Assembly (NCBI GenBank): GCA_039802145.1
Contig: JBDRWA010000002.1
Span: 1 to 43,032 of the forward strand
Direction: 5' to 3'
Origin: a candidate division WOR-3 bacterium
GTDB taxonomy: Bacteria; Hydrothermota; Tepidihabitantia; SM23-42; JAOAFX01
Length of the DNA stretch: 43,032 nucleotides
Below, in pieces: positions 4,255-42,347 of the stretch. A program made the position numbers and the translations under genes. Numbering within the stretch: position 1 is the first letter of the stretch; each line of letters starts with the position of its first letter. The notes beneath the pieces are model-generated. The model had not been told where the DNA came from, searched no databases, and worked only from the letters and a program-made list of their open reading frames with translations.

Positions 4255-4256
4255 CA

Positions 4257-5849
4257 ATGCAGTTACGCGAAGAAATTCGTTTAAAAGGTATGAATTTTTC
4301 AAAGAGAAGCAGTATTGCAATTATGCTTTTCTGTATCCTGATTGAGTTGATTTTCTTATTCGGATATTTATTCAAATTCATGTATGTTCCTGTTCTTTTG
4401 CCCATAATTACTGCAGTTATATTCATTTATGCATTTGTTATTTTTAATCTTGTGCGCAGGAATATTTACTCTGCTCTATTCCCCTATAGTATCACTACTG
4501 TAACAATACTCGTTTTAACAGTATGTCTTGCCTTTGTAAATCCTCAAATTAGAATACCGTTTTTTATTATATACTTATATATCGCACTCCACCCTGCATA
4601 CCTCCTCGGTATAAAAAATGGACTATATGCTATTGTGCTGACAGATATTGCCTACGGAATAATGGTACTATTAACCCAGCATCTCTATCCAGAAGTAAAT
4701 CTGGGATTAGAGTTTACGAAACTCATATTTTTTACCTTTATAGCCTTTTTGCTCACCATTGATTTTGACCGTGATTTAGTCCGCTTGAGACGTTTCAGAA
4801 CATTGATGGGAGAAGTTGAAAAAGGAGATCTGACTGTGCGGTTTGAAGAAAAAAATGGTTCACCAGATGAAATATCTCTGCTTGGCAGAACAATTAACAG
4901 ACTTATATCGGCTGAGGCTGGTATTATAAAATTAATAATTGAAACATCACGGAACCTCAGTGAGATTGGAAGTCAAATTGCCTCTACTTCAAGTGAGCTT
5001 TCCACTGCAATTTCAGAAATCGTTTCTACAACTCAGAAAATGACAGAAGGTGTTGAACGTCAATATCAGGAACTTGATAAATCAATTTCTACAGGCAAAT
5101 CATTAAGTGAGATAAGTTTTGAGGTGGTCGACAATATCAAAAAAGTCGAAGGTTATGCAGATAATTTTGCCACAAGCGCAAGCGAGGGGTTGAGTCAGAG
5201 TGATATTATGATAAAAAATATTGAAATCATAGGAACCAGATATGAATACCTCATTAGTTTGATGACAAAATTATATGACGTATCAAACACCATTACTAAA
5301 ATTATTGAAACCATAAACAAAATCTCGGAGAAGATAAATATTCTCTCCCTTAATGCCTCTATTGAAGCGGCACGGGCAGGAGAGTTTGGTAAAGGATTTG
5401 TAATTGTTGCAGACGAAATAAAAAAACTTGCAGATAACACCCAAAATTCAGCAATGGAAATCGACGAAATTGTAAAAGAAATGATCGAATCTATCCGAAC
5501 CGTAGCAGAAAGCTCAGAAGAAGTCAGAAAAGCAATTGATGATGGGAACCATGTTGTTAAATCCACCACTAATTCATTGCGCACTATCTCCAGTGCAGTG
5601 ATAGAATTAAATACCGCAATAAAAAATATTAAAAATATAATTTCCCGAGAGGAAGAGGCAGTAACAAGTATATTAAAGCAAATTGAAGACTCATTTAATA
5701 TTTCAAAAGAAAACTCTACCGCTGCCGAACAGATACTTGCTTCGTTAGAAGAACAATCTGCTGCAACCGAGGAGTTTACAGCAACAGGGCAGGAACTGCT
5801 CAATATTACAAATAGATTGTCAAAGGTGATACAGAATTTTAAGGTCTGA
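4257..5849 (+). CDS. Methyl-accepting chemotaxis protein-like transducer (polytopic N-terminus, HAMP, MCP signalling domain)
   Basis: Start chosen at ATG 4257, after AGGAGG at 4245-4250. There are about six hydrophobic helices, a HAMP-like GDLTVRF...[13 protein letters not shown] segment and the conserved hairpin tip [30 protein letters not shown]. Confidence 0.85.
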
Positions 5850-9808: not shown

Positions 9809-9866
9809 AAATTATGCATAGCTGGAAAAAAAACACCCAAAATACCTGAAAATTGATTAATAATCA

Positions 9867-10526
9867 CTATTTATTAAAATACCCGAGATAGAATCTGGCT
9901 TCATTGGTTATGTCTTGAGGTGGATTTTGTTCAAGAAGTTTTTGCAATATCTCCCGAGCCTTCTGTGTATTACCTAAAATTCCATTTACTCTTCCCCAAG
10001 AAAGCATCCCCAAATAATAAAAATGGGAATTTTTATTGTGCGTAACTTTCTCATAGTATTTCACTGCTCGTTCATAGTCTTTTAAACCTTCTGCAGAACA
10101 GCCGGCAGCGATTTGCGCTGAAGATGTAAGGAGAAAATCATTTTTCTCTTTGTGAAGAAATTTATCAAAATAATCAAGCGCCTCACTAAATCTTCCTGTA
10201 TTGTAAGTTATTACACCAAGATAATAATACGCTACTTTTCCTGGTCTGGTATTACTGTGTTTTTCGGCTAATTGTAAAAAAAGATTTTCTGCTTCCTGAA
10301 TCTTACCCATATTTATAAAATTTATCGCCTGGGTATACATTAATTCTGCCTCAGGATTAATCCGTTCTGACGGATATATAAGATATCCTATAATAAATAT
10401 CGCCGCAATCAATCCAATACCTATCCAGATTGCAATATCACGATGCCGTACAATAAATTTAATTAAATTTTCCATTGTACGCTGGAATGAGTCTTCAGTC
10501 TTCACGCCCCGTTTCATATCTTTCAT
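9867..10526 (-). CDS. Membrane-anchored tetratricopeptide-repeat protein (YfgM-like architecture)
   Basis: A single N-terminal TM helix (IAIWIGIGLIAAIFIIGYLIY) followed by TPR-like repeats (A..YYLG, A..YY.K). Confidence 0.6.
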   Translation of the reverse strand: MKDMKRGVKTEDSFQRTMENLIKFIVRHRDIAIWIGIGLIAAIFIIGYLIYPSERINPEAELMYTQAINFINMGKIQEAENLFLQLAEKHSNTRPGKVAYYYLGVITYNTGRFSEALDYFDKFLHKEKNDFLLTSSAQIAAGCSAEGLKDYERAVKYYEKVTHNKNSHFYYLGMLSWGRVNGILGNTQKAREILQKLLEQNPPQDITNEARFYLGYFNK

Positions 10527-10538
10527 AAAGCTCCTAAA

Positions 10539-10612
10539 TACCCCTGACCCGATTTGAACGGGTGACCTGCGGTTTAGGAAACCGCTGCTCTATCCTGCTG
10601 AGCTACAGGGGC
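10539..10612 (-). tRNA. tRNA-Arg (anticodon CCU)
   Basis: The reverse complement is GCCCCTGTAGCTCAGCAGGATAGAGCAGCGGTTTCCTAAACCGCAGGTCACCCGTTCAAATCGGGTCAGGGGTA, with anticodon loop TTCCTAA and a G1:U72 wobble in the acceptor stem. Confidence 0.85.
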
Positions 10613-10626
10613 ACAAATATTGTTAG

Positions 10627-10654
10627 ATTATATAAAATTTATAACAAAAGTCAA
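10627..10654 (-). promoter_or_regulatory. Sigma70-type promoter TTGACT-16-TATAAT for tRNA-Arg (and probably the downstream TPR gene)
   Basis: On the minus strand, TTGACT is the complement of 10649-10654 and TATAAT the complement of 10627-10632. The tRNA starts 14 nt downstream. Confidence 0.72.
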
Positions 10655-10677
10655 TAATTATTTACCATTAAATCTGA

Positions 10678-10705
10678 TTGACAAGTAAATTATTTTATGT
10701 ATAAT
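10678..10705 (+). promoter_or_regulatory. Sigma70-type promoter TTGACA-16-TATAAT, 7 nt before ATG 10713
   Basis: TTGACA at 10678-10683 and TATAAT at 10700-10705. The first in-frame ATG (10704) lies inside the -10 box, so ATG 10713 is the likely leaderless start. Confidence 0.6.
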
Positions 10706-11441
10706 GAAATTAATGAAGCGAGGATTGGTTATAATTCCGACCTATAACGAAGCCGTGAATATTGAGAAAATAATAAATGCTGTCCTTTCTAAGTCTGAAC
10801 AGCTTGAAATTCTTGTAATTGATGATAATTCTTCGGATAATACCTCAGAAATTGTTGAAAATCTGATGAAACAAAATAATAGAGTGCATATCATCAAGAG
10901 ACCCAGGAAGATGGGACTTGGTACTGCCTATGTCACTGGATTTGGATATGCGCTTGAAAATAACTATGATTTTGTTTTTGAAATGGACGCAGATTTCTCA
11001 CACGACCCCAATGATCTAACAAGGTTCATTGAACTTTTAGCTAAATATGATTTAATCATTGGGTCTAGATATATAAATGGTGTGAGTGTTGTCAACTGGC
11101 CAATGAAGAGATTATTACTGTCTTTTTTTGCCTGTATATTTGCAAGGATTGTCACCGGTGTTCCGGTTCGAGATCTTACTAGCGGATTTAAATGTTATTC
11201 GCGCCGTGCGCTCGAGAGTGTAAACTGGAAAAAATTTAAGGTTGATGGCTACGGATTTCAAATTCAGAGTGTTTATGGAGTTTTCTCTGCCGGTCTGCCA
11301 ATAATAGAAATACCAATAATCTTTGTAGAACGGAGGGCAGGAACATCAAAGATGTCAAAGAAAATAATCTGGGAAGCATTCTGGTTGGTTTGGAAACTAC
11401 GCCTTATGTCGATATTCAACAAAAAATGGCTCAGTAAATGA
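10704..11441 (+). CDS. Polyprenol-phosphate mannosyltransferase (GT2, Dpm1-like); the real start is probably ATG 10713
   Basis: Motifs LVIIPTYNE, VIDDNSSDNT, GLGTAYVTG, EMDADFSHDP and GSRY. Confidence 0.88.
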   Translation: MKLMKRGLVIIPTYNEAVNIEKIINAVLSKSEQLEILVIDDNSSDNTSEIVENLMKQNNRVHIIKRPRKMGLGTAYVTGFGYALENNYDFVFEMDADFSHDPNDLTRFIELLAKYDLIIGSRYINGVSVVNWPMKRLLLSFFACIFARIVTGVPVRDLTSGFKCYSRRALESVNWKKFKVDGYGFQIQSVYGVFSAGLPIIEIPIIFVERRAGTSKMSKKIIWEAFWLVWKLRLMSIFNKKWLSK

Positions 11442-13603
11442 TTTCAATTAAACTTTTTATTATTGCCATCTCATTAAAGCCAGTTTTCTATACAAATCAC
11501 AATTATGTATATAATATCGCAGTCAATGCTTCATCTGTTTATGCAGCAACAAACGGTGGTATTGTGGCCTACAATTATCTAAATAATAATTTTAAGGTTT
11601 TAACGAACACCGATGGATTAACAACTAATCGTCAGAAATGCATCGCAATTGATAGTTCGGGTAATATCTGGGCAGGTTCAGATAATGGCCTTGTCCAGAT
11701 TGATAAATCATTCAATAATATTCAGATTTATCCGATTGAATGTCTACCTTGCACGAGGGTGAATACAATTTATTGTTTAAAAGATACAATCTTAGTGGGA
11801 ACCCAAAACGGCTTGTTGGTGATAGATACAAAAGGCACATCAGAGAATTTTCAGGATGATAAAGTTTTAAAGATCTATGATTTTCAAGGATTATCTTCTA
11901 ATAATGTTTTGACAATTGAGGTTGATACCTTTTTCTGGATTGGTACGGATGAAAAGATAACAAGATTCACCAATGATTTTCAGAATTATACTATCTATGG
12001 TATGGAAAATGGATTGCTCAAAAATTATATTGTGAAAATAAAAATTATAGATTCAGGTCTCTATGTGGGAACCGATGGAGGATTAAACAGATTTACAGGA
12101 ACCCATTTTGATACGCTAATAACCGGTTATAAAATTGTTGATATAGAAAAGGCAGGCGACTCACTCCTTCTTGCCCTTGATTCCCTTCGTCAGATCGGGA
12201 TATTTTTTCAGGGGAATTTGAGCCTTTTGAATAGCGGTATTCCCTATTTGATCAGGATAAATGATATTGAAAACTATAAAGGAATTTGGTTCTGCGCCAC
12301 TGGTAATTCCTTTAAATCCGATTATTTCGGCGAAGGGATAGGAATTTATAATTTTGTAAATCAACAATGGGAATTAAAAAAAGATAATTGCCTTGCTTCA
12401 AACCACATTTGTAGCATAACTGCAAACCGACATGGCGTTTTCATTGCTCATGGGACACGAAATGTTGATGCGCGCGGGGTTAGCTGGCTTAAAACCAATC
12501 AAACTTGGCAAAATTTATGTCAAGATTCACTCGTTCCCACGAAATTCGTTCACCGCTGTATCACTGCACCAGACAAAAAAATCTGGTTCGCTCTGCATTA
12601 TACAGATTCCTTAATCGCAATTTCCTACGATCCAGAAAATAATTCCTGGTATTATTTGAAACAAAAATATCGTGGTATTGATAGTACCGTAGCGATATGG
12701 GATTTGAAATTCGACCTGAGGAATAATATGTATCTTTCCCTTGCTGGGCCATCAGATAAAATCTGGGTTTTTGATTCTGCACTGACAGTAGCATATCTCC
12801 TTGGTGATAGAACCCCGGGATTTGAAGTTGAACTTGCAATTGATTCAAGTCTGCATGTGTATAGCACGGTCTTTGATGCCGCAGGCGGTGTATTAATGAT
12901 TGATACTAAAGGAACAATCTTTGACCGCGGGGATGATATTAATTTAAAGTATGGGAAGACCGATGGATTGCTTTCGCAATTCTGCTCTGGTATAACGGTA
13001 GATGAAAGAAACAATGTTTACATTGCCAATGAAATTGGCGTTTCAGTGCTTCAAAATAATCGCTTTGAGTACATAGAAAATTTCAATGGTGGCATGATTT
13101 ATGATGTGCTCGCAGATGGCGAGGGCAGGGTATGGATAATGGCTGACAACGGAATATATGCTTATGATATTAATTACAAAATATTAAAAGGTTTTCTCTT
13201 TAATGAATTGAGTGTTAATGTAGAATTTCTGCCGGTAAGCAATGAAATAATACAGGTCCAGGGGTTTTTCTATGATTCTTTACGTTCCTGTTTCTGGTTG
13301 GGGAGCGAGAATGGACTGTTGAAACTTGAAATCTGCAAAAGTGACACATCTTTATTAGATAGTGTTATAATCTACCCCAATCCGGTAATAAGAGGCGGTG
13401 TTGTGCGCATTAAAAATATTCCCGACGATGCTACGGTAACCATATTTTCAATTTCGGGTAGGAAGTTAGCGCAGGGTTTAAACCCTAATTCCTTGGGCGA
13501 AGTTCTCTGGCAAATTCCATCTAATATACCAAGTGGTTTATACTTCGCATTAATTATTACCGGTAATGATAAAAAGGTTTGCAAGTTTGCTATTGTCAAA
13601 TAG
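11438..13603 (+). CDS. Secreted beta-propeller repeat protein (two-component-regulator-propeller type repeats) with a T9SS C-terminal sorting domain
   Basis: Repeated W.G(T/S)..GL...(D/F) units (IWAGSDNGLVQID, LVGTQNGLLVID, YVGTDGGLNRF). The C-terminus IYPNPV...VTIFSISGRKL...SGLYFALI is typical of Por/T9SS CTDs. Confidence 0.75.
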   Translation: MISIKLFIIAISLKPVFYTNHNYVYNIAVNASSVYAATNGGIVAYNYLNNNFKVLTNTDGLTTNRQKCIAIDSSGNIWAGSDNGLVQIDKSFNNIQIYPIECLPCTRVNTIYCLKDTILVGTQNGLLVIDTKGTSENFQDDKVLKIYDFQGLSSNNVLTIEVDTFFWIGTDEKITRFTNDFQNYTIYGMENGLLKNYIVKIKIIDSGLYVGTDGGLNRFTGTHFDTLITGYKIVDIEKAGDSLLLALDSLRQIGIFFQGNLSLLNSGIPYLIRINDIENYKGIWFCATGNSFKSDYFGEGIGIYNFVNQQWELKKDNCLASNHICSITANRHGVFIAHGTRNVDARGVSWLKTNQTWQNLCQDSLVPTKFVHRCITAPDKKIWFALHYTDSLIAISYDPENNSWYYLKQKYRGIDSTVAIWDLKFDLRNNMYLSLAGPSDKIWVFDSALTVAYLLGDRTPGFEVELAIDSSLHVYSTVFDAAGGVLMIDTKGTIFDRGDDINLKYGKTDGLLSQFCSGITVDERNNVYIANEIGVSVLQNNRFEYIENFNGGMIYDVLADGEGRVWIMADNGIYAYDINYKILKGFLFNELSVNVEFLPVSNEIIQVQGFFYDSLRSCFWLGSENGLLKLEICKSDTSLLDSVIIYPNPVIRGGVVRIKNIPDDATVTIFSISGRKLAQGLNPNSLGEVLWQIPSNIPSGLYFALIITGNDKKVCKFAIVK

Positions 13604-20078: not shown

Positions 20079-22517
20079 GTGAAAAAAATTTTACTACTTG
20101 ATGCCAATTCTTTGATATTTCGTGCCTATTTTGCCTTTATCAAGAACCCGTTGAGAAATTCAAAAGGGCAGAATACTTCAGGAATCTTTGGTTTTCTTAA
20201 TTCACTAAAAAAAATAAAGACAAAATTTGACAGTGAATTTATCGTACTGACATTTGACTCCCCGGGTGAGACCTTCAGAGATCGGGTTTTTAAAGAATAT
20301 AAGGCAACTCGTCCACCTGCCCCAAAAGATATTCCATTCCAGATTGAAAAAGTTAAGGAAATAAGTAATTATCTTGGTATTAAAAGCTTTGAGGTACGCG
20401 GTTATGAAGCGGATGATGTCCTTGCAACTCTGGCAAATAAATTGAAGGATTATGGCGAAGTCTATATTGTGAGTTCGGACAAAGACCTTATGCAACTCAT
20501 CTCGGACAATATATTTATCTATGATGTTTTTAATGATATTGTATATGACGCAGAAAAGGTAAAAGAAAAATTTGGTGTTGAACCCGCACGGATCGGTGAA
20601 TACCTTGCACTTTGTGGTGATTCAATTGATAACATTCCGGGTGTTCCGGGAATTGGCCCCCATCGGGCGCTTGAGATTTTAAAAAAATATCCGAACCTTG
20701 AAGCGGCAATGGAAAAAGAATCAAAATTAAAAGAGCATCGTGATGTGCTCATCCTCTCAAAAAAGCTTGTAAAGCTTGAGATGAACGCACCTATTGAAAT
20801 TAAACCTGAAGACTTGGCAATTAAGCATTTCGACACGGAAAATCTTTTAAAAGTCCTTTCTGAACTTGAATTTCATTCTTTAATAAAGGAATTTGCACCG
20901 AGGTTCGATGCAAAGAATTTTAATAAAAAAACCGGCATATCTGATGCTGCAATAAAAAAGGATGTCGGTATTGCGGTTTATGAAGATAAAGTTTTTTTAA
21001 GTTTTAATGAAGGCGAAATTTATATTACGACATTGAAGGATGGAGAAAAGATTATATCTGATACAGGGATAACAAAGATTGGATTTGATTTAAAAGATCT
21101 ATGCAAATCAATTCCCCTGACGCCACCACTATTTGATGTGAAGATTGCATCCTGGCTTATAGAGCCAAATATAAAGAACGACCGATTTGAAGATATCTGT
21201 CTAAAATATCTCCATAGTTATGTTGAATCATCGCCTGAAGCCATATCTAATCTCTCTTTGAAACTCTATCCCGTTTTAAAGAAAAGACTTGAAGAACTGG
21301 ATGAATTCATACTCTATAAGAAGATTGAAGAACCATTAATAAATGTGCTGGCAAAGATGGAAAAAAGGGGAATTGGTATTGATGTCAATTTTTTAAAGGA
21401 GTTAAAAAAACGACTTGAAAAGGATATTGGACTCCTTGCGGATGAATGTTATAAGAGCGCGGGTTGTGTCTTTAATATCAATTCGCCCAAGCAACTTGCG
21501 GAAATTTTATTTGGGAGACTGAAATTAACACCGGTGAAAAAAGGGAAGTCACATTATTCTACCGACTTTGAAGTGCTTCAGCAATTGAGTTTGAAACACG
21601 AATTACCCCGCAAAATCCTTGAATATCGGGAACTCGCAAAGGTTTCCAGCACATACATTGACCCGTTGATTGAACTGGCAAAAGATGGTAGAATACATAC
21701 CACATTCAATCAAACTGGAACTGCTACCGGCAGGCTTTCATCAAGTAATCCGAACCTCCAGAATATTCCAATCAGAAGTTACTGGGGAAATGAATTGAGA
21801 AAAGGATTTATTGCCCGGAATGGCTTTTTACTAATTTCTGCTGACTATTCCCAGATTGAATTGCGAATTCTTGCACATATAACCAAAGACAAAAACCTCA
21901 TTGATGCTTTTAAATCAGGACGCGATATTCATAACCATACTGCATCATTGATATTTAATATCCCTGAAGAAAAGGTGAATGAACATCAGAGACGGATAGC
22001 AAAAGTGGTAAATTATGGTTTGATTTACGGAATGAGTGAGTATGGACTTGCCCAGGAATTGGGTATATCCCAGGAGGAAGCAAACCAATTTATTCAGTCG
22101 TATTACACATTATATCCTGGTGTTGAAGAGTGGAGAAAAACGGCAATAAAGAGCGTTGAAGAAAAAGGCTATACCGAGACGATATTTGGTAGAAAAAGAC
22201 CTGTCCCTGAAATACATTCAGAAAATTTTAATATCAAAGAATCCGCAAAGAGACTGGCGATAAATACACCAATACAAGGGACCGCGGCGGATTTAATTAA
22301 AATTGCAATGATTGAGGTTGAAAAAAGGCTCTCGGATGCAAAATTTGCAAGCGGACTTGTATTATCGGTTCATGATGAACTTCTATTTGAAATAGAAGAG
22401 AAACGCGTTGAAGAGGCAAAAGAAATAATAAAGGATGTAATGGAAAATATCTATAAATTTGCGGTGCCGATTGAGGTGGATATAGGCACCGGAGAGAACT
22501 GGAAAAAGGCGCATTGA
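20079..22517 (+). CDS. polA: DNA polymerase I (5' nuclease + degenerate 3'-5' exo-like linker + family A polymerase)
   Basis: N-terminal LLLDANSLIFRAYFA and GYEADDVLATLA (5' nuclease). Polymerase motifs LISADYSQIELRILAH, RRIAKVVNYGLIYG and VLSVHDELLFE. I could not find the DxE / NxxxD / YxxxD exonuclease motifs by eye. Confidence 0.93.
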   Translation: MKKILLLDANSLIFRAYFAFIKNPLRNSKGQNTSGIFGFLNSLKKIKTKFDSEFIVLTFDSPGETFRDRVFKEYKATRPPAPKDIPFQIEKVKEISNYLGIKSFEVRGYEADDVLATLANKLKDYGEVYIVSSDKDLMQLISDNIFIYDVFNDIVYDAEKVKEKFGVEPARIGEYLALCGDSIDNIPGVPGIGPHRALEILKKYPNLEAAMEKESKLKEHRDVLILSKKLVKLEMNAPIEIKPEDLAIKHFDTENLLKVLSELEFHSLIKEFAPRFDAKNFNKKTGISDAAIKKDVGIAVYEDKVFLSFNEGEIYITTLKDGEKIISDTGITKIGFDLKDLCKSIPLTPPLFDVKIASWLIEPNIKNDRFEDICLKYLHSYVESSPEAISNLSLKLYPVLKKRLEELDEFILYKKIEEPLINVLAKMEKRGIGIDVNFLKELKKRLEKDIGLLADECYKSAGCVFNINSPKQLAEILFGRLKLTPVKKGKSHYSTDFEVLQQLSLKHELPRKILEYRELAKVSSTYIDPLIELAKDGRIHTTFNQTGTATGRLSSSNPNLQNIPIRSYWGNELRKGFIARNGFLLISADYSQIELRILAHITKDKNLIDAFKSGRDIHNHTASLIFNIPEEKVNEHQRRIAKVVNYGLIYGMSEYGLAQELGISQEEANQFIQSYYTLYPGVEEWRKTAIKSVEEKGYTETIFGRKRPVPEIHSENFNIKESAKRLAINTPIQGTAADLIKIAMIEVEKRLSDAKFASGLVLSVHDELLFEIEEKRVEEAKEIIKDVMENIYKFAVPIEVDIGTGENWKKAH

Positions 22518-23584
22518 TGCAGTTCTTTTTTATACCATTAATAATTTATTGTCAGATTGTCAGCCTTGAGCAAGGACAATTTTATGGTTTTGATTCACCA
22601 CCCTATCTAACACCAACATCATCACCATCCACTTCAATGGTGATTAATTGGAACACAAAATTGTCAGTGCCGAGCAGGATTGCTTTTGGAACAGACCTTT
22701 TATTAAAAGATACCATCAGGATAAATAAAAATACAAACTTTCATCACATAATTATCAATAATCTCAATCCTGGGACAGAATATTATTATAAAATCTTGCC
22801 GGATGGAGATATTAAGAAATTTAGAACTTTTCCACAGTCTCCAGATTCCTTTAATTTTATTGTCATTGGTGATACACGAACTGATTCTATAAGCCATCAG
22901 GCAGTAATTGATAGAATTGTACAATATGATTTTGAATTTATTGTTCATTCAGGAGATTTCGTTACCAGGGGTTACAGTTCTGACGATTGGAGGACATTTT
23001 TTAACATAACGGACAAAATCATTTCAAAAAAACCATTTTTGCCCACGATCGGCAATCATGAAAAGCCGTTCTGTCAGTATGATACCCTCTTTGCCCTGCC
23101 CGGATTAGAAGATTTTTACTCGGTGCGGTTTGCCAATCTTTGTATTATCTGTTTAAATACTGAGATTGAATTAAACGGTTATCAAAAGAAATGGCTTACA
23201 AACGAATTGAAATTTGTCTCTACTGATACGACGATTGACTGGATATTCGTGAATTTGCACAGGCCACCTTATTCTTCAGGGAGCCATGGTAGCGATATGA
23301 ATGTGCGCAAATCCTGGTGTCCTATATTTGAAGAATATGGTGTGGATATGGTATTTTGTGGTCATGACCATTCTTATGAGAGAACAAATGAAATAAATGG
23401 AGTGGTTTATATCGTCAGTGCCGGCGGTGGTGCTCCTCTTTACAATGTCGGGAAGAGTGAATGGACCGCATATTCAGAAAAGACCCATCATTTTTGTCTT
23501 GTAAAGATTAAACAGAAAGAATTGTTATTAAATGCAATAAAACCTGATGGATCGGTCTTTGATTCACTGAGGTTAAAAAAATGA
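22517..23584 (+). CDS. Secreted calcineurin-like metallophosphoesterase (purple acid phosphatase-like)
   Basis: A signal-like N-terminus, then GDTRTD, HSGDFV, GNHE, LHRPPYSSGSHG and GHDHSYER. The start overlaps the polA stop (TGATG). Confidence 0.85.
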   Translation: MQFFFIPLIIYCQIVSLEQGQFYGFDSPPYLTPTSSPSTSMVINWNTKLSVPSRIAFGTDLLLKDTIRINKNTNFHHIIINNLNPGTEYYYKILPDGDIKKFRTFPQSPDSFNFIVIGDTRTDSISHQAVIDRIVQYDFEFIVHSGDFVTRGYSSDDWRTFFNITDKIISKKPFLPTIGNHEKPFCQYDTLFALPGLEDFYSVRFANLCIICLNTEIELNGYQKKWLTNELKFVSTDTTIDWIFVNLHRPPYSSGSHGSDMNVRKSWCPIFEEYGVDMVFCGHDHSYERTNEINGVVYIVSAGGGAPLYNVGKSEWTAYSEKTHHFCLVKIKQKELLLNAIKPDGSVFDSLRLKK

Positions 23585-33814: not shown

Positions 33815-34597
33815 ATGAGGAAAGATTCAAATAACTGGTGCGAGGATTTCTTCATAAAAAATAGTAATTACTAGCTTTACCTGATGGACCAAAATTGGCA
33901 ATATGCGAAAGCAGAGACGAAACAAATTCTCAAAATATTTAAGGAATTTGGAATTAAAAAAGGGAAGGTACTTGAACTTTGTTGTGGGAATGGCAGGATA
34001 TGTGTACACCTTGCTAAAAAAGGATTCAATGTGACGCGTATCGATTTTAGTCCAGATTATATTAAGGATGCCGACGCAAAAGCGAAGGAATACAAAGTTA
34101 AAGTTCATTATGTATGTGACGATATTCGTCGCCTGAATAAAATTATTGAAGAAAAGTTTGATATAATTTTGAGTATCTGGACATCAATTGGTTTTTATAC
34201 CAGAAAAGTAGATCAGAAAATCATTAAAATGGCAGCAAATTTACTGAAGAAAAACGGCCTTTTTCTAATTCTACGGATAATGTCTCAAGAATGAGTATTG
34301 AACCATTTTTGTCCTGCGATTTGGGAAGACGTAGGTAAATATATAATCTTACAAAAGCCTGAATATGACCACTTCCATTCAAAACTTAACGTTAATTGGA
34401 AATTTTATAGAAAAGAAAGTAAAAATTTAATATTTGAAATTGAATTACCACTCAAATTAAGGTTATACACACAGCATGAATTAACCGAAATGGCAGAAAA
34501 TGCAGGACGAAAATTTGTTAGGGCATATGATTCAATATCCACTTTTGAACCAACATATCCTGACATTAATATTAATATGGTCTTCAAAAATATCTAA
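33815..34597 (+). pseudogene. Class I SAM-dependent methyltransferase interrupted by two in-frame stops (TAG 33872-33874, TGA 34292-34294)
   Basis: A single reading frame from ATG 33815 to 34597. It includes the SAM motif VLELCCGNGRI and the post-I acidic residue in the second block. ORFs 33884-34294 and 34298-34597 are in the same frame, and the N-terminal W.EDFF......Y*LY motif is cut by the TAG. Confidence 0.65.
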
Positions 34598-35768: not shown

Positions 35769-35796
35769 TTGACTTTTCATAATATTTAGTTATAAT
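35769..35796 (+). promoter_or_regulatory. Sigma70-type promoter TTGACT-16-TATAAT for the TonB-dependent receptor gene (and possibly the next three genes)
   Basis: TTGACT at 35769-35774 and TATAAT at 35791-35796, with a 15-nt leader containing AAGGA. Confidence 0.65.
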
Positions 35797-35811: not shown

Positions 35812-38346
35812 ATGATTAATTTTTTCTTGATTGCATTTCTGTTTAGTGGGATTACGGGTAAGATTCAAGGGGTGGTAAAAGATGAAGATACTAAAGAGCC
35901 TATTACCCTTGCCGATGTTATTATTTTGAATACTGAAATGGGCGCAGCAACCAATGAGAATGGCAATTTTTTCATTTTAAATGTGCCTTCAGGAAGGTAC
36001 ACAATTGAAATCTCCTGCCTTGGCTATCAGACAAAGAGAATTGAAAATGTAGTAGTTGAAGTTGACCGAACCACAAGGCTCAATGTAACACTAAAACAGA
36101 CTGCCATTGAGATTGCACCGGTTACGGTCTACGGAGAAACTCCAACGATAAAAAAGGATTATGTCGCTACAACCCAGATTGTGCGCAAAGCGGAGATTGC
36201 TACATTGCCGGTTGATTATACACCAGCAGTAATCACATTCCAGGCAGCCGTGGCAAAGACCGATACTGCCTTACATGTCCGTGGTGGTAGGGCAACCGAA
36301 GTCCAGTATATGGTTGATAATGTTTCAATCATTGACCCCCAGACCGGAGACCTGGCAATAGAAATATCAAAAGGGATTGTTGAAGAAGTGATATTTCTGC
36401 CTGGAGGTTTCGATGCCGAATATGGTCGGGCAATGTCCGGGGTGGTGAATTTAATTTCCGAAAGGCCCTACAAAAAGTTACATGGAAACCTTTATGCCAA
36501 GACCGAAAAGATTATGCCTTTTTATTATGATTTTGGTTATGAGAATTATCAATCCACAATTCATCTGCCTGCTACGAAAAACTTGCAAGGGCTTGCCTCA
36601 ATAGATATTATGCAGACAAATGATTGGGACCCGCGATTATATATATTACCCCATAAACAAAGAGACGATTACTCAATTTACAGTAAATGGCTCTTTACGC
36701 CTTCGGGCAAGATCAAATTGGGTGTGAGTGGAGCAAAATCAAGGAGTCAGTTTGACCGCTATTCAGGACCTGATCCATTTTTTAAATTCTATCTTGACCA
36801 TTATCGTTCGGATATGCGCAAAGGTGAACTTGCCGCCTTAAATTTAAACTATCTCCCTGATAATAAAAAATTATTCAATCTCACGGTCAGTAGACTGTAT
36901 ACACAAAAAACTTATGGTGTTCGTGAGTCAGGTAATTATGGGATATTTGATGATTTCAAATTCCGCGATTACCGAACGTTGAAATGGCCCAGAGGAACCC
37001 ACAGAAACCCCTTTGGTGTAACTTATTATAAAGTTATAAGTGAAGGTGATTACCCGCAGTATCAGGAAAAAAGTTCTGAAGTGTATAATTTTAACTTTAA
37101 AACCAACCTCCAACTCCATCAGTACCATGAACTAAAGGCTGGTGCTGAATACATCTATCAAAATCTTGATAATTTTACATATTTTGTCTGCACTGATACA
37201 TTGAATCCTATTGTGGACGACTACAATCATCAACCAAAGGAATATTCAATTTATGTACAGGACAATATTGATATTAAAGGATTCTATGCAAAACTTGGTG
37301 CACGATATGACTACTTTGCTGTGGATATTGAAGGTGCAAAACCCCAGATAAATATCTCACCCAGAATAGGTTGTTCATTCTTGGTAACAGAAAAATTTCT
37401 TTTCCGAGCCAATATAGGCAGGTATGTGCAACCGCCTCTTTATGACTATGTTTATTCGTTCTACGAACTCCTTCCTCTGGCACCCCAATACTACAATTTT
37501 ATATCAATTATTGGCAATCCGGAATTGAAACCCGAAAAAACAATAAGCTATGAAATTGGATTTCAGGGATTGATTAAAGAAAATCTAACCGGCACAACAA
37601 ATTTATTTTATAAAGATGTATCTGATCTAATCGGTACGCGATATATTATACAACTACCACGCGGGTATTACCAGTACTATAATGTTGAATATGCAAATAT
37701 TAAAGGAATGGAAACAATTCTTGAATATAATAATTATTATTTTAATGGCAAGATTTCTTATACTCTTTCCTGGGCAAAAGGAACAAGTTCTTATGCAGGC
37801 GAGTATGCAGATACTTCAGTAAGTAAACCTGCTCAGGATTATTATCTAAACTTTGACCAGCGACACAGGATCTTTATCCAAGGTGGATTAAAAGGACCCT
37901 TAGGAACAAATATTTTTCTCCTTGCCTACTTTGGCAATGGTTTTCCTTATACTCCACCTGGATATATGGGTAAATACGAAGAACGTAATATCTTCCACCT
38001 GCCTTTTCAGCGCCAGATTGACTGTGTGATTGTGAAAGGATTCAATATTAGCAGAATATTTTTCAATCTTCAATTAGAAGTTATCAATCTCCTTGACCAA
38101 CGTTATGAAGTAGCACCCCATTATCCATTGATACCGCTTGAAAAAATAAGGGCAGACGATTTTAACTATGATATATCACTCACAAATCCCTATTACAGTC
38201 CTGCAGCCGACTTCAACCACGATGGTATTATCACTCCCTATGAAACATATTACTCTTTCAGAGAACTTATCAAAGCAACCGATGACTGGGTCGCGGCTTA
38301 CACAGCACCAAGAAGGGCAAGAATTGGTATTAGAATAAATCTATAA
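35812..38346 (+). CDS. TonB-dependent outer-membrane receptor with an N-terminal carboxypeptidase-regulatory-like domain
   Basis: GKIQGVVKDEDTKEPITLADVII...NGNFFILNVPSGRYTIEISCLGY (CarbopepD_reg-like), the plug motif VRGGRATEVQYMVDNVSI, and a long beta-barrel. Confidence 0.85.
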   Translation: MINFFLIAFLFSGITGKIQGVVKDEDTKEPITLADVIILNTEMGAATNENGNFFILNVPSGRYTIEISCLGYQTKRIENVVVEVDRTTRLNVTLKQTAIEIAPVTVYGETPTIKKDYVATTQIVRKAEIATLPVDYTPAVITFQAAVAKTDTALHVRGGRATEVQYMVDNVSIIDPQTGDLAIEISKGIVEEVIFLPGGFDAEYGRAMSGVVNLISERPYKKLHGNLYAKTEKIMPFYYDFGYENYQSTIHLPATKNLQGLASIDIMQTNDWDPRLYILPHKQRDDYSIYSKWLFTPSGKIKLGVSGAKSRSQFDRYSGPDPFFKFYLDHYRSDMRKGELAALNLNYLPDNKKLFNLTVSRLYTQKTYGVRESGNYGIFDDFKFRDYRTLKWPRGTHRNPFGVTYYKVISEGDYPQYQEKSSEVYNFNFKTNLQLHQYHELKAGAEYIYQNLDNFTYFVCTDTLNPIVDDYNHQPKEYSIYVQDNIDIKGFYAKLGARYDYFAVDIEGAKPQINISPRIGCSFLVTEKFLFRANIGRYVQPPLYDYVYSFYELLPLAPQYYNFISIIGNPELKPEKTISYEIGFQGLIKENLTGTTNLFYKDVSDLIGTRYIIQLPRGYYQYYNVEYANIKGMETILEYNNYYFNGKISYTLSWAKGTSSYAGEYADTSVSKPAQDYYLNFDQRHRIFIQGGLKGPLGTNIFLLAYFGNGFPYTPPGYMGKYEERNIFHLPFQRQIDCVIVKGFNISRIFFNLQLEVINLLDQRYEVAPHYPLIPLEKIRADDFNYDISLTNPYYSPAADFNHDGIITPYETYYSFRELIKATDDWVAAYTAPRRARIGIRINL

Positions 38347-38361
38347 TGAATTTTAAAATGT

Positions 38362-38841
38362 ATGAACGGGAAGAATTCAATGTTGAAGATTTATAATTGT
38401 ATTTATACAAAGAAAAAAAATTTTTGTTTTCTACCACTTTTAATTTACTGTCTGATTGCCTTTCTGCATTATAACGCTGCCTGTAAGAATCCCCATAATT
38501 ACGAACCTTTTGATTCACTCTATCCGCCACCAGCACCTCCTATGCTTATTTTTCCTCCGAATGATACAGTAATTGTATATTACGAACCTTTCCCCCATGA
38601 TATAGCATTTGAATGGAATTCTGTTGAAGATGCTGAAAATTATCAATTACAGGTAGTAAATGATACTACTCAACTTTTAAATGCTCCAGTCATTAAAATT
38701 ACTGATACTTTAGCAATTTATACTTTAACGCGAAATAATCACTATTATTGGCGTGTTAGAGCTTATAATCCAAAATGGGAATGGTTTACTAATTGGTCTG
38801 AGACAAGGCATTTTTATGCTTATTATGAGGAGGCTAAATGA
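38362..38841 (+). CDS. Small putative lipoprotein with an FN3-like domain
   Basis: A signal peptide ending in a lipobox-like HYNAAC. The domain pattern PPNDT...FEWNSVEDAENYQLQV...YYWRVRAYN...WSETRHF is common in FCB secreted proteins. The start could instead be ATG 38380. Confidence 0.6.
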   Translation: MNGKNSMLKIYNCIYTKKKNFCFLPLLIYCLIAFLHYNAACKNPHNYEPFDSLYPPPAPPMLIFPPNDTVIVYYEPFPHDIAFEWNSVEDAENYQLQVVNDTTQLLNAPVIKITDTLAIYTLTRNNHYYWRVRAYNPKWEWFTNWSETRHFYAYYEEAK

Positions 38842-39698
38842 AAAATTTAAAATTAACCGAACCAATATTTTTAAGAAATTTAATGGTCTATCCTGTAAAA
38901 AATGGTGGAGACAATGGGAACTCAGAAATTGATACTATTGATAATCTTATTACTACGGGGAAGGCAAGTTTTTATGAACTTGCCACACCTGATGTAAACA
39001 AAATCGTTTTTGATAACAAGGGTGATTCTCCCGTGCTGATGATTGATGGTGAAGAAATAACCGGTTCTATGCAGAACCGCATAATTGCGCAATCATTCAT
39101 TGCTGAACCACATTCCCGAAGTCAAATACCAGTGATATGCGCCGAAGAGAAAAGATGGGAAGAAATTGGTGGATTCAGAACGGGCTATTGTTCATATCCG
39201 AGAATTCGCTCCATTCTTGCATCTTCGGACAGTAAAAAAACTGATACCCAGCATCAAGTATGGAAAGAAATTGATAGGAAATTGACAATCACCAGGACAA
39301 AATCAAAAACCTCATCTATGCATGAAATATTTGACAATCTTAACGATGAGATTGAACGGTATGTTGAGGGATTTGAAGGGCTAAATCACAATACAGTCGG
39401 ATTTTTGGGTGTTGCCGGCAATACTATACTTGGTTGTGATATATTCGCTTCTTCTGAAATATATCATAAATTTGAAAAGAAATTATTGCGCAGTTATGCA
39501 CTGGATGCAATTGAATACCAACAGATTAGAGGAAATTGCCCTGATGTGAAGAATTTCTTTGATAAACTAATAAAGACAATAACCGAAAATGAACTTAAAC
39601 AGAAACCAGGAAACAGGAGAATAAAAGGAAGAAAGTTAGTCGGGCAGATGGTTTTTTATAAAAATGCCCCTGTGCATATCTCTGCATTTCCGGGTTAA
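38838..39698 (+). CDS. ARPP-1 (formerly DUF6569, as I recall) family protein, function unknown
   Basis: LMVYPV near the N-terminus, PVLMIDGEEITGSMQNRIIAQSFIAEPHSRSQIPVICAEEKRWE, QHQVWKEID and LLRSYALDAI match the family core I remember (GEEL.GAKQNR ... PVSCVE.GRW ... VW.EV). ATGA overlap with the lipoprotein gene. Confidence 0.6.
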   Translation: MKNLKLTEPIFLRNLMVYPVKNGGDNGNSEIDTIDNLITTGKASFYELATPDVNKIVFDNKGDSPVLMIDGEEITGSMQNRIIAQSFIAEPHSRSQIPVICAEEKRWEEIGGFRTGYCSYPRIRSILASSDSKKTDTQHQVWKEIDRKLTITRTKSKTSSMHEIFDNLNDEIERYVEGFEGLNHNTVGFLGVAGNTILGCDIFASSEIYHKFEKKLLRSYALDAIEYQQIRGNCPDVKNFFDKLIKTITENELKQKPGNRRIKGRKLVGQMVFYKNAPVHISAFPG

Positions 39699-39709
39699 AA
39701 TGAAGAAGT

Positions 39710-39830
39710 ACATCAGAAAATCAGGGTATCAGAATGAAGCATATAAGAATATCTGAGTATCAGGGTGTTCCCCTCTCGCTATTCTGTTACATCGGTGACC
39801 ACTTTCTGATAGTCTGATTTCCTGATAACC
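39710..39830. repeat. Long-range inverted repeat made of 8-nt-phased ATCAG (x3) and CTGAT (x3) units
   Basis: ATCAG at 39712, 39720 and 39728. CTGAT at 39806, 39814 and 39822. The arms 39711-39734 and 39804-39828 are complementary at about 20 of 23 positions. ATCAGGGT is also directly repeated at 39720 and 39759. Confidence 0.8.
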
Positions 39831-39836
39831 TAACCT

Positions 39837-42347
39837 ATGCTTCTAAAAAAACTCGGTAAATACGAAATCATTGAATGGCTCGGCGGGGGCAGGTTCGGCG
39901 ATGTCTTCCTCGCCTATGATACAATCCTTGAAACCCAATTTGCCTTAAAGATTTCAAGAATGCGTAAAGAAGAGATTGTCATGCTCAAAGACGAAGCAAA
40001 ACTCCTTGCTTCTTTAAATCATCCCAATATCGTTCGTTTTTATAATATAGATTTCATTGAAAATAAATTCGTCCTGGTGATGGAGTACATAAAAGGCAGG
40101 ACCTTAAGGGAAGTCATTAAAGAAGGGGGCATTGAGATAAATGAATTCTTAAATATTGCCCAGCAGATACTTGATGGAATAAATTATGCACATAAGATCG
40201 GTGTGCTCCATCGTGATTTAAAACCTGAGAATATCTTAATAACAGAAAATAACACAATCAAGATAACTGATTTCGGACTTGCCCGTTTTTTAAAGACCGG
40301 CTCAATTGCGGCATCAACTGCCGGCACGCCAATCTATATGGCACCCGAGGTTTGGTCGGGAAAATTCAGCGAGAAGTCTGATATCTGGAGTATCGGTGTT
40401 ATCTTTTATGAACTACTCACCGGCATCCCGCCTTTTCTTGATGATAACCTTGATGGTTTAAAAAAGAAGATTGAAAAGAGCAAGTTGTTAATTCCGAGTA
40501 TGATAAGACCAAATCTACCTGGATACCTTGAAGATATTATCATAAAATGCCTTAATACAAATCCTGAATTAAGACCTGATTCAGAAGCAATAACGAAAAT
40601 TTTAAAGAAACAAACAAAAGGTATAAAAATTGAGTCAACGATAGGTGTCCCTGAAAAGAAGAAAGGTGAATTAAAATTGACCCCGGACCAGGAGCAGATA
40701 ATAAACAACCTTGATGGCAAAATACTTGTTCTGGGACAGGCGGGTTGCGGTAAGACTACAAGCCTTGTCTATGGAATTTTAAAACTCATTGAGAAAGGTA
40801 TTCCACCATCGCGTATCCTTGTCTGTGCATTTACCAATAAAGCAGCAAATGATATAAAGACACGACTGAGCCAGTTTGTTCCGTCGCCCCAGTATGACTT
40901 TTGGATTGGCACATTCCACACCGTTGCCCTAAGAATTCTTCGTCGCGATTGCGAACGGCTTGATATCTGTGAAGATTTCATTATTGAAGAACCAAGAAAA
41001 ATATTTCCATTATTGAAGACTGAAACCGGAAAGTATAAAATGAATGCGATAATCAGAACGATCGAAATACTCAAGGCAAAAGGAATTACCCCGGAAAAAT
41101 TTGCACCGGCAAATGAATGGCAGAAGGTCTGTCTCAAAATTTATAAAGAATATCAGCAGTACCTGAAAGATAACAATATTCTTGATTATGACGACCTGAT
41201 TATTTATGCCACAAAGTTATTAGAAGAATATCAAGATCTACGGGAACATTATCAAAGTATGTTTGAATATATCTTCGTTGACGAACTCCAGGACATAAAT
41301 CCGGCCCAGTATAAATTTATCTCCCTGCTGGTAAAAGATAACTTTTTCTTTACCGGTGATGAAGATCAAGCAATATATGGCTGGCGTGGCGCAAGCAAAG
41401 ATTTCATTTACCGGGTTGCCCGGGATTTCAAAGATGTAAAAATATTCCATCTCAATCGCAGTTTCCGCCTTCCCCAATCAATACTTGAAATTGCCAATAA
41501 TTTGATGCAGCGAGAAACGACCGCCATTCCTAACTTAGAAACCGGTGATGTGATTTTCTATGTGGCGGATTCAATAAACGACGAAATTGATTATATTGTT
41601 AAAGAAATAAAAGACCTTGTAGAACTGGATTTTTCTTATCGCGATATTGTCATTCTTTATCGTATGAATTACCTTGGCAAAAGTTATGAAGAAGGATTCA
41701 CAAAGGCAGGCATTCCCTTCACCACCATTCGCGGCACAACATTTTATGAGAAAGAAGAATTCAAGTCAATCATAGAATACCTTGAATTTTTAAATATCTG
41801 CAGATCTGCTGAAATATCTCAAGAATCTATCACCCAAGGGGTTTCTATATTCAGAGTCACAAAGAGCGTGCAAAATAAATTGGAGAAGATTGTTGAATGC
41901 CATCTCCAGAATCTAAATGTATTATCACCCTACACCATTATCAATGAATTGGTCAGCATTTTGAAATTGAAATCGGAAAACCTCGAAGAATTTTTAAGCT
42001 TTGCCCAGAACTATTCGGAAGCAGGAATCGGTAAATTCCTGAGCGATCTGAAATTGTTTCAGGAAATGGATTTGGCAGATTGGACAAAGAATACCATTAA
42101 GTTAATGACGGTCCACAGTGCCAAGGGAATGGAATTTCCTGTGGTATTTGTCGTGGACCTGGTAGAAGAGATATTCCCTATGACAAAGAGTCTATCAGAG
42201 CCAAGAGACCTTGAAGAAGAAAGAAGACTCTGCTATGTGGCAGTCACCCGTGCCCAGAAAAGACTCTATCTTCTATATCCCAAATACCGCTCGGGCAGAC
42301 AGCAATTACCATCAAGATTTTTGATTGACATGCTGAGAAAAAGATAA
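39837..42347 (+). CDS. Fusion protein: N-terminal Hanks-type Ser/Thr protein kinase + C-terminal UvrD/Rep-type SF1 helicase
   Basis: Kinase motifs: LGGGRFGDV, FALKI (Lys38), HRDLKPENIL, DFGLAR, GTPIYMAPE and DIWSIGV. Helicase motifs: Walker A GQAGCGKTT, CAFTNKAANDI, VDELQDINPAQ, FFTGDEDQAIYGWRGA, LNRSFRLPQ, MTVHSAKGMEFPVVFV and RLCYVAVTRAQKRLYL. Confidence 0.9.
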   Translation: MLLKKLGKYEIIEWLGGGRFGDVFLAYDTILETQFALKISRMRKEEIVMLKDEAKLLASLNHPNIVRFYNIDFIENKFVLVMEYIKGRTLREVIKEGGIEINEFLNIAQQILDGINYAHKIGVLHRDLKPENILITENNTIKITDFGLARFLKTGSIAASTAGTPIYMAPEVWSGKFSEKSDIWSIGVIFYELLTGIPPFLDDNLDGLKKKIEKSKLLIPSMIRPNLPGYLEDIIIKCLNTNPELRPDSEAITKILKKQTKGIKIESTIGVPEKKKGELKLTPDQEQIINNLDGKILVLGQAGCGKTTSLVYGILKLIEKGIPPSRILVCAFTNKAANDIKTRLSQFVPSPQYDFWIGTFHTVALRILRRDCERLDICEDFIIEEPRKIFPLLKTETGKYKMNAIIRTIEILKAKGITPEKFAPANEWQKVCLKIYKEYQQYLKDNNILDYDDLIIYATKLLEEYQDLREHYQSMFEYIFVDELQDINPAQYKFISLLVKDNFFFTGDEDQAIYGWRGASKDFIYRVARDFKDVKIFHLNRSFRLPQSILEIANNLMQRETTAIPNLETGDVIFYVADSINDEIDYIVKEIKDLVELDFSYRDIVILYRMNYLGKSYEEGFTKAGIPFTTIRGTTFYEKEEFKSIIEYLEFLNICRSAEISQESITQGVSIFRVTKSVQNKLEKIVECHLQNLNVLSPYTIINELVSILKLKSENLEEFLSFAQNYSEAGIGKFLSDLKLFQEMDLADWTKNTIKLMTVHSAKGMEFPVVFVVDLVEEIFPMTKSLSEPRDLEEERRLCYVAVTRAQKRLYLLYPKYRSGRQQLPSRFLIDMLRKR

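Follow-up and report, generated by a model that had tools for sequence, protein, structure and literature searches.

A recurrent gene pair joining ARPP-1 to a Hanks kinase-UvrD helicase fusion in candidate division WOR-3 and other bacteria

Introduction

Which of several tightly packed, co-oriented genes belong together as a working unit, and is that unit a defence system or part of the cell's own housekeeping? The question is raised by a locus towards the end of the 43,032-nucleotide stretch of DNA analysed here ('the window': positions 1 to 43,032 of contig JBDRWA010000002.1, assembly GCA_039802145.1, from a candidate division WOR-3 bacterium), where three open reading frames (ORFs) follow one another on the forward strand: one for a small lipoprotein (38362-38841, 159 amino acids), one for a protein of the ARPP-1 family (PF20208/DUF6569; 38838-39698, 286 amino acids) and, beyond a 138-bp spacer (39699-39836), one of 836 amino acids (39837-42347) that joins a Hanks-type Ser/Thr kinase to a helicase of the UvrD type. 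A preliminary description, made without database searches, had taken the whole as a candidate three-gene module, spacer included, in which a helicase might sense foreign or damaged nucleic acid and control a kinase output, with ARPP-1 as sensor or modulator; a lineage-specific housekeeping arrangement was its fallback. The coordinates and lengths that it gave, the ATGA overlap of the lipoprotein and ARPP-1 ORFs (38838-38841), and the size and repeat structure of the spacer were all borne out; its view of what the module contains, and of what it is for, has had to change.

Results

The membership of the module is settled by the gene neighbourhoods of relatives. ARPP-1 adjoins the fusion in 11 of the 13 fusion loci examined. 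Seven look-ups, with fusions ranging from 96% to 48% identity, placed it immediately upstream and on the same strand every time (7/7) and, on contigs outside the fusion list approached from the ARPP-1 side, the fusion followed directly downstream in both cases (2/2). An ARPP-1-centred scan of metagenome contigs, in which each of 78 loci was scored for an adjacent fusion, relates this linkage to distance: at 350 bits or more (roughly 43% identity and above) 41 of the 42 evaluable loci have the fusion as the next gene downstream, mostly across a 3-nt gap or with overlapping ORFs; between 200 and 350 bits (33-40% identity) four of eight do so; and below 200 bits (24-31% identity) none of 14. The sole exception among the 42 (L115) is a contig that stops within an inserted element at the junction, comprising repetitive extragenic palindromic (REP) sequences and a REP-associated tyrosine transposase (RAYT). 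At least 40 contigs of equal size are common to the best 120 fusion matches and the best 120 ARPP-1 matches.

The pairing also extends beyond WOR-3. With a 37%-identical fusion as the query of a second search, the kinase::UvrD architecture was found in metagenome-assembled genomes (MAGs) labelled Aminicenantia, Thermosulfidibacter/Thermosulfidibacteraceae, Stahlbacteria, Hydrothermales, Planctomycetes and Synergistetes, as well as in a clade of ~963 amino acids; one fusion match carries the name of Thermosulfidibacter takaii, a cultured species. In Thermosulfidibacter (L091) and Aminicenantia (L092) the gene immediately before the fusion is again ARPP-1, amid completely different flanking genes, the flanks at L142, L145 and L146 hold TldD/PmbA, GT2, MgtC and radical SAM genes, and at L009 the gene order is reversed, with the fusion first and ARPP-1 second. 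Genes that stay linked through changes of flank, phylum and order carry a classical signature of functional coupling and, because the linkage here persists across all three, we take the unit to be the ARPP-1/fusion pair: a two-gene operon found in WOR-3 and in at least Thermosulfidibacter, Aminicenantia and another uncultured lineage. The proposed three-gene module is thereby cut to two genes, the lipoprotein being variable within WOR-3 and absent elsewhere, and the notion that ARPP-1 might be a conserved neighbour of the fusion in other genomes is upheld.

Two fusion loci, L093 and L075, are without ARPP-1; the latter, along with L009, was recovered from a scan of genome contigs with the fusion motifs HRDLKPEN and DQAIYGWR, with no WOR-3 genome among the matches listed. 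At L093 (1480-8613) a co-oriented run consists of genes for MutS2 (MutS_V + Smr), a 718-amino-acid protein and then the kinase::UvrD fusion, the second of these products matching FtsA/actin-like ATPases and, weakly and below threshold, several ubiquitin-like families of the beta-grasp fold (ThiS, TGS, Ub-Mut7C, RnfH). At L075 (4815-12242; Pyrinomonadaceae, from the ~960-amino-acid fusion clade) a gene for an Fpg/Nei glycosylase lies ~1.3 kb upstream of the fusion, and one for a DUF4178/zinc-ribbon protein ~400 bp downstream. At L009 the ARPP-1 stop is overlapped by a gene (4703-5497) for a 264-amino-acid protein that matches PLDc_2 (PLD family) and, weakly and below threshold, an OB-fold; these matches would suit a nuclease or a phosphodiesterase, perhaps acting as a third component, at this locus only. 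A third gene conserved throughout was considered and set aside, as the flanks change with every lineage and the PLD+OB gene is confined to L009.

ARPP-1 genes that are nearest to the fusion-linked clade but lack a fusion overlap genes for signalling enzymes: a CdaA-type diadenylate cyclase (assigned by Pfam) at L149 (4003-5708), with an ORF of the same size in the same position at L148 and L150, and a RelA/SpoT protein (HD_4 + RelA_SpoT) at L147 (4977-6921). These arrangements hint that ARPP-1 partners signalling enzymes in general. More distant ARPP-1 genes pair with HIRAN (L152, L155).

Turning to the proteins, the fusion matches Pfam Pkinase at residues 9-252 (39861-40592; E=1e-59), UvrD-helicase at residues 281-532 (E=4e-63) and UvrD_C (E=1e-44), such that the SF1A (superfamily 1A) PcrA/UvrD-type helicase as a whole occupies residues 281-836 (40677-42344). 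In 14 fusions of the WOR-3 clade the Hanks residues are invariant (G-loop G16-V23, K38, E53, HRDLKPEN 125-132, DFG 145-147 and, of the APE motif, P170-E171), as are the SF1 motifs Q285, GCGKT 303-307, DELQD 482-486, GDxDQAIYGWRGA 507-519, R544 and TRA 804-806; the helicase also carries TFTNKAA and H760-G764, and motifs Q, I, Ia, II, III, IV, V and VI are all conserved. Across 75 fusions of 28-100% identity most catalytic residues remain invariant, with K38, Q285 and E483 conserved in at least 90%. Both halves of this single ORF are thus, to judge from their motifs, catalytically complete, just as they had first been read.

Full-length homologues of the fusion (831-859 amino acids, 48-96% identity) number more than 110, nearly all of them from WOR-3 MAGs and including four closed genomes (CP070664, CP070686, CP070795 and CP070705). 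Between WOR-3 loci the kinase domain is 63-82% identical and the helicase domain 49-69%, the kinase being the higher of the two in every pairwise comparison. Such a pattern is atypical of bacterial Hanks kinases, and the position of the kinase as the most conserved part suggests that the phosphorylation output is central, with a direct link between signalling and a DNA motor.

The closest solved relatives of the helicase half are PcrA, Mycobacterium tuberculosis UvrD1, UvrD and Rep, and JGI annotation labels the fusion proteins 'DNA helicase-2/PcrA'. Against the NCBIfam equivalog models, however, it scores 392.6 where the cutoff is 911 (pcrA, TIGR01073) and 319.9 where the cutoff is 1144 (uvrD, TIGR01075). 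It aligns to PcrA 12-402 and 507-639, with PcrA 403-506 only partly represented; the core of its 2B subdomain is ~45 residues shorter than that of PcrA and unalignable with it, and nothing in the fusion corresponds to the C-terminal region of PcrA (residues ~640-724). Given the sub-cutoff scores, partial 2B and missing C-terminal region, the helicase half falls outside the PcrA/UvrD orthologue group.

An AlphaFold2 (AF2) model of the fusion, in which confidence within the domains is good (predicted local distance difference test, pLDDT, 83; predicted template modelling score, pTM, 0.58), has a disordered stretch at residues 261-277, within the linker between the two domains (residues ~253-280, 40593-40676). 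On this model the kinase would be flexibly tethered to the helicase by a linker of roughly 20-30 residues. Rigid docking of the one onto the other was also considered and discarded: with a pTM of 0.58 and a disordered linker, a fixed arrangement is not predicted.

The upstream partner matches Pfam PF20208 over the full length of the family (E=8.8e-59; score 199.7 bits, cutoff 27), its residues 4-284 aligning to profile positions 2-297 of 297. The ARPP-1 assignment, made originally from a GEE..G..QNR / C.EE.RW core, is therefore sound, and the core itself is present as DGEEITGSMQNR and CAEEKRW. Within it, Q79 (codon 39072-39074) and C101 (codon 39138-39140), together with R81, E103, R106 and W107, are invariant in 36 members of the clade and conserved to at least 99% in 114 distant representatives. 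All residues conserved across the family, as seen in 150 representatives, are kept here (G71, E72, G76, Q79, R81, C101, E103, R106, W107, R124, Q138, W142, S156, T158 and H280) and, since none has been lost, we regard the protein as a canonical and presumably active member of a family that yields some 5,000 representative clusters when grouped at 50% identity. The S/T-rich stretch at residues 150-162 was considered as a phospho-acceptor motif specific to the kinase, and rejected: S156 and T158 are conserved family-wide, and so are not specific to the fusion-linked clade.

ARPP-1 appears cytoplasmic, no signal peptide being evident on inspection. Its AF2 model (pLDDT 81, pTM 0.85) consists of N- and C-terminal blocks of beta-strands plus helices and, when compared with the PDB by Foldseek, returned zero structural relatives at E<=1e-3 and hence no mechanistic lead from the fold. 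This fits the published description of the ARPP-1 fold as uncharacterised (Iyer, Burroughs, Anantharaman and Aravind 2022, Viruses 14:1977; PMC9503650), in which the domain, a duplicated beta-meander with an inserted barrel, is unrelated to characterised folds, is defined by an absolutely conserved Cys and Gln, and is predicted to be an enzyme or covalent sugar binder.

The chromosomal surroundings of the pair bear directly on the question of defence. The window contains genes for an aminotransferase, ThiC, MCP, a sigma-54 regulator, GH57, HypB/HypF, PolA, Asd, AccD, PBP1 and four tRNAs, and within it there is no integrase, restriction-modification, toxin-antitoxin or defence gene and no nuclease or toxin, the module itself having been described at the outset as lacking a nuclease or overt toxin; roughly 20 annotated contexts are likewise free of defence, restriction-modification, toxin-antitoxin and integrase genes. 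A recurrent arrangement in WOR-3 (metK-ahcY / receptor / ARPP-1 / fusion / DedA-HHH_3-NfeD) is syntenic in closed genomes. Pairwise identities between WOR-3 loci are 77-85% for MetK, 58-87% for the TonB-type receptor, 57-72% for DedA, 53-64% for the HHH_3 protein, 53-73% for the whole fusion and 47-69% for ARPP-1, so that the pair diverges at a pace similar to that of neighbouring housekeeping genes (DedA and the HHH_3 protein).

No relatives of ARPP-1 or the fusion were found among IMG/VR viral contigs. A PADLOC run gave generic domain matches only for the fusion (GajB, E=9e-89; PD-T4-6, E=3e-65; mad6, E=3e-82) and none for ARPP-1, which is also without a match in PHROGs, where generic domain matches were all that was returned; this agrees with the earlier statement that the combination matches no named system. 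A phage origin of the pair was discarded, given the lack of viral-contig relatives and the generic nature of the PHROG domain matches. From the synteny, the housekeeping-like divergence and the absence of viral relatives we conclude that a mobile, fast-evolving defence system is unlikely, and that a vertically inherited cellular function is to be favoured. The defence logic of the preliminary description thus loses ground, as does the prospect that the loci might sit in defence islands, their flanks being housekeeping genes. Its fallback fares better in one half: 'housekeeping' is closer to the evidence, and 'lineage-specific' is not, as the pair spans several phyla.

Upstream of the pair in the window lie the lipoprotein gene and, 15 bp before it, a gene for an 844-amino-acid outer-membrane protein that resembles TonB-dependent receptors and, by Pfam, has CarboxypepD_reg as its N-terminal domain (35812-38346, forward strand). 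The best sigma-70-like promoter match by consensus, TTGACT-16-TATAAT (35769-35796, forward strand), is located upstream of the receptor gene and may, on the strength of the motif, drive a four-gene transcript of receptor, lipoprotein, ARPP-1 and fusion; the number of such matches in the region is not above shuffled expectation.

The lipoprotein deserves its name, in that the lipobox cysteine (Cys41) follows a hydrophobic stretch and is invariant in nine homologues; the additional label 'FN3-like' is weak, with no Pfam match at E<=0.01 and, in profile searches of the PDB, only weak matches (E=0.0046 at best), nearly all of them to FN3 modules. The homologues share 28-54% identity and diverge faster than the ARPP-1/fusion pair. 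As a neighbour the lipoprotein is variable and accessory: one or two copies occur in 17 of 34 evaluable WOR-3-clade loci, it is absent at L004, L008 and L089, and it is duplicated at L005. The receptor was upstream in six of the seven fusion look-ups and lies within 2.5 kb upstream in 24 of the 34 WOR-3-clade loci, other genes taking that position at L008, L009, L091 and L092; receptor and lipoprotein are both absent at every fusion-linked locus outside that clade (L008, L009, L091, L092, L142 and L144-L146).

In two closed genomes the receptor is tandem-duplicated upstream of the pair (L006:1479-6597, L007:1479-6597), at L090 it has copies at 2984-5563 and 9621-12167, the second after the fusion gene, and at L001 three extra genes for predicted exported or surface proteins stand between receptor and lipoprotein. 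Plasticity is therefore high on the outer-membrane side of the locus, and is not shared by the ARPP-1/fusion pair. The lipoprotein travels with the upstream receptor. We regard these two as a separate outer-membrane pair that only shares its orientation with the module in WOR-3.

The spacer, too, is best placed outside the module. It contains four copies of ATCAG, three of CTGAT and a 23-nt imperfect inverted repeat, and folds into a single hairpin, long and imperfect (-38.3 kcal/mol, z = -2.97). In many relatives the ARPP-1 and fusion genes are 3 nt apart or overlapping, and in others a RAYT-like Y1 transposase of ~180 amino acids lies exactly between them (L001:6978-8000, L102:2131-2850, L115:5856-6731, L118:5850-6609 and L120:3061-4122, coordinates of the RAYT/REP insertions), bordered by arrays of two kinds of REP palindrome, GCA[AG]TAGCAAGCTA[CT]TGCACTCC and GGAGTGC[AG]TCAGCTTGCTGA[CT]GC. 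A single REP pair is left at the junction at L003 (5098-5165), L090 (6919-6995), L112 and L123. Together, the RAYT and its REPs resemble a REPtron stably housed at the ARPP-1/fusion junction.

No canonical REP of either type occurs anywhere in the window. The spacer has a CATCAG/CTGATG core in common with one of the REPs of its relatives, and may on that likeness be a decayed REP. We regard it as an insertion-site remnant or a structured intergenic element; as a regulatory element of the module it was rejected, since it is unconserved and occupies what in relatives is a REP/RAYT insertion spot.

Elsewhere in the window, an ORF for a SAM-methyltransferase (33884-34294, 136 amino acids) is followed three bases later, in a different frame, by one of 99 amino acids (34298-34597) without a Pfam match. 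The two (33884-34597) could represent one gene broken by a frameshift or a pseudogene, or else reflect an error in sequencing.

Discussion

We tentatively favour an account, and quite possibly the right one, in which ARPP-1 and the fusion constitute a chromosomally fixed, vertically inherited two-gene module for a DNA transaction coupled with signalling, rather than a mobile defence island. We speculate that the helicase half would load onto single-stranded DNA or a 3' end and translocate at the expense of ATP, and that ARPP-1, predicted to be a Cys/Gln enzyme or to bind sugars covalently, would act on DNA with a damaged sugar or a blocked end, by recognising or processing it, with abasic, 3'-blocked or ADP-ribosylated sites as candidate lesions. 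With the helicase engaged on DNA, the tethered kinase might then phosphorylate itself, ARPP-1, or repair or replication factors, so turning a DNA event into a signal. The 2B subdomain is a regulatory element of UvrD, PcrA and Rep, and its divergent, shortened form in the fusion would be the likeliest interface for control by a partner. We centre this mechanism on DNA because of the PcrA/UvrD-type motor, the HIRAN partners of distant ARPP-1 genes, the MutS2 and Fpg/Nei neighbours of fusions that have no ARPP-1, and the PLD+OB gene at L009; HIRAN binds DNA 3' ends.

Taken further, the pair could be a previously unrecognised bacterial checkpoint for DNA damage or DNA ends, in which the helicase tracks, ARPP-1 engages the lesion covalently or catalytically, and the kinase broadcasts; this more specific proposal we consider rather unlikely. 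Were it true, the checkpoint would be a prokaryotic counterpart of the eukaryotic damage-sensing kinases in logic, not in ancestry, and would give ARPP-1 its first defined biochemical role.

Several points weigh against the account that we favour. Helicases and kinases are common parts of defence systems. The closed genomes sampled were those chosen for carrying the fusion, and the WOR-3 loci are phylogenetically related, so that our counts overstate independence, with independent lineages numbering ~4-6. The overlaps with cdaA and relA/spoT point at least equally to nucleotide signalling as to DNA lesions. ARPP-1 was, moreover, first described in predicted conflict systems, and we infer its lesion-sensing role from genomic context and from the analogy with SRAP proposed there (PMC9503650).

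One alternative overlaps with the favoured account and differs from it mainly in emphasis, namely that the fusion is the lineage's housekeeping PcrA/UvrD, engaged in fork clearing and in excision or mismatch repair, to which a regulatory kinase has been added, with ARPP-1 as an accessory in the manner of MutL, Ku or RepD and not itself part of the signalling. That the best NCBIfam and PDB matches of the helicase are PcrA, UvrD and Rep, that JGI labels it accordingly, and that the gene is chromosomal and strongly conserved are all in keeping with such a role. We nonetheless think it unlikely: the scores fall far under the equivalog cutoffs (392 against 911 for PcrA, 320 against 1144 for UvrD), the 2B core is ~45 residues shorter and unalignable, the counterpart of PcrA ~640-724 is missing, and the kinase is more conserved than the helicase, suggesting that phosphorylation is the central output.

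Alternatively, ARPP-1 might be a sensor of, or enzyme acting on, a small molecule such as ADP-ribose or a nucleotide derivative, through which it controls signalling enzymes, the kinase being the regulated output and the helicase serving to localise or gate it. The nearest fusion-less ARPP-1 genes, overlapping as they do with cdaA (L149) or relA/spoT (L147), lend themselves to this idea, and the published partners of the family include WYL ligand-binding regulators and ADP-ribose-processing enzymes (PMC9503650). Yet the CdaA and RelA contexts come from one lineage each and may reflect operon neighbours brought together by chance, HIRAN as a partner is suggestive of DNA ends, and the strict conservation of the helicase motifs suggests that ATP-driven work on DNA is essential, as opposed to a vestigial anchor; we find this explanation quite unlikely.

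Decidedly unlikely, in our view, is an anti-phage or anti-plasmid system in which the helicase would sense foreign nucleic acid and the kinase trigger an abortive or protective response, with ARPP-1 as sensor or modulator. It draws on the definition of ARPP-1 from predicted NAD/ADP-ribose conflict systems (PMC9503650), on the domain-level matches of the two fusion halves to PADLOC GajB, PD-T4-6 and mad6, and on the nuclease-like PLD-family gene that overlaps the ARPP-1 stop at L009. Set against these are the generic character of the fusion's matches and the lack of any PADLOC match for ARPP-1, NCBIfam scores for MADS6 and PglW far under their cutoffs, roughly 20 annotated contexts with no defence, restriction-modification, toxin-antitoxin or integrase gene, WOR-3 loci with no effector gene, the syntenic position in closed genomes, the lack of viral-contig relatives, and a slow, housekeeping-like divergence in which the kinase is the most conserved part. 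A single envelope-to-DNA system formed by receptor, lipoprotein, ARPP-1 and fusion, for instance one that takes up and processes DNA or nucleotides from outside the cell, is very improbable indeed: tight packing (a 15-bp gap, then the ATGA overlap), a lone strong promoter-like site upstream of the receptor gene and the presence of the receptor in 24/34 WOR-3-clade loci would suit it, but receptor and lipoprotein are absent at L008, L009, L091, L092, L142 and L144-L146, the lipoprotein varies from 0 to 2 copies and diverges faster than the pair, and at L001 three unrelated genes intervene between receptor and lipoprotein.

Returning to the ARPP-1/fusion pair as a DNA transaction and signalling module, its wider significance is threefold. 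To ARPP-1, a family of predicted function, a strict, multi-phylum pairing with a helicase-kinase offers a concrete DNA-centred context that complements the HIRAN association. A Hanks kinase flexibly tethered to an SF1A helicase is an arrangement undescribed in the searchable literature. Lastly, parts that look like those of defence need not make a defence system: a stable chromosomal module can be formed by a kinase and a UvrD-like helicase together with a family derived from conflict systems. Given the match named for Thermosulfidibacter takaii, experiments may be feasible.

Comparison with known systems

Among the SF1A helicases, the fusion resembles PcrA, UvrD, Rep and UvrD1 in possessing all of the SF1 motifs and in aligning to PcrA 12-402 and 507-639, and departs from them in its added N-terminal Hanks kinase, its short 2B core and the lack of a PcrA-type C-terminal region. 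The helicase half also matches the GajB profiles of Gabija (PADLOC E=9e-89), as would be expected of most UvrD-like helicases; unlike Gabija, however, no locus has an adjacent GajA (OLD-family ATPase/TOPRIM nuclease), the fusion gene is not part of a defence island, and a kinase domain is lacking in GajB.

With Stk2/PD-T4-6, MAD6 of MADS and PglW of BREX-2 the fusion shares a generic Hanks kinase similarity (PD-T4-6 E=3e-65, mad6 E=3e-82). In NCBIfam it scores 200 against a cutoff of 460 for MAD6 and 99 against 990 for PglW, no methyltransferase, PglX/Z or other partner gene of MADS, BREX-2 or PD-T4-6 is nearby and, in contrast to those systems, the kinase is fused to a helicase in a stable context.

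Closer in concept are two signalling enzymes of a different kind. YabT of Bacillus subtilis is a DNA-activated Hanks kinase with a short DNA-binding region, and DisA is a DNA-scanning diadenylate cyclase with an HhH domain; in both, as may be the case for the fusion, a signalling enzyme is coupled to a DNA-binding or scanning module that reports on DNA integrity. The analogy goes no deeper, as the architectures are unrelated and both proteins lack a helicase motor as well as an ARPP-1 partner.

The nearest precedent lies in the ARPP two-gene neighbourhoods, with HIRAN, WYL or a deacetylase as partner, that were described along with ADP-ribosylglycohydrolase (ARG)-centred ADP-ribose systems (PMC9503650). 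In the searchable literature on ARPP-1/DUF6569 or a Hanks-kinase-UvrD fusion that paper was the only relevant one and the pairing is not described; 'UvrD' is absent from its main text, and no mention of 'kinase' there concerns ARPP. The present pair differs in several respects from the published systems: no rhodanese-phosphatase, Nudix/WYL regulator, Macro, NADAR or REase gene is at the locus, its partner is a Hanks kinase::UvrD helicase, and it sits in stable chromosome, not in a variable conflict locus. An ARG domain is found neither in the annotated ORFs of the window nor in 15+ related loci, no gene for a rhodanese-phosphatase or other phosphatase, or of the Nudix/WYL kind, adjoins ARPP-1, and the only phosphoesterase in the window (Metallophos, 22514-23584) is 15 kb away in an unrelated operon. 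The likeness is nevertheless clear, in that the same family, with its conserved Cys and Gln, stands in a tight two-gene unit with a nucleic-acid-related partner, and the HIRAN-ARPP pairs of that work are recovered here too (L152, L155). We therefore consider the ARPP-1/fusion pair to be a fourth ARPP two-gene module, one that is multi-phylum in its distribution and brings a new type of partner to the family.

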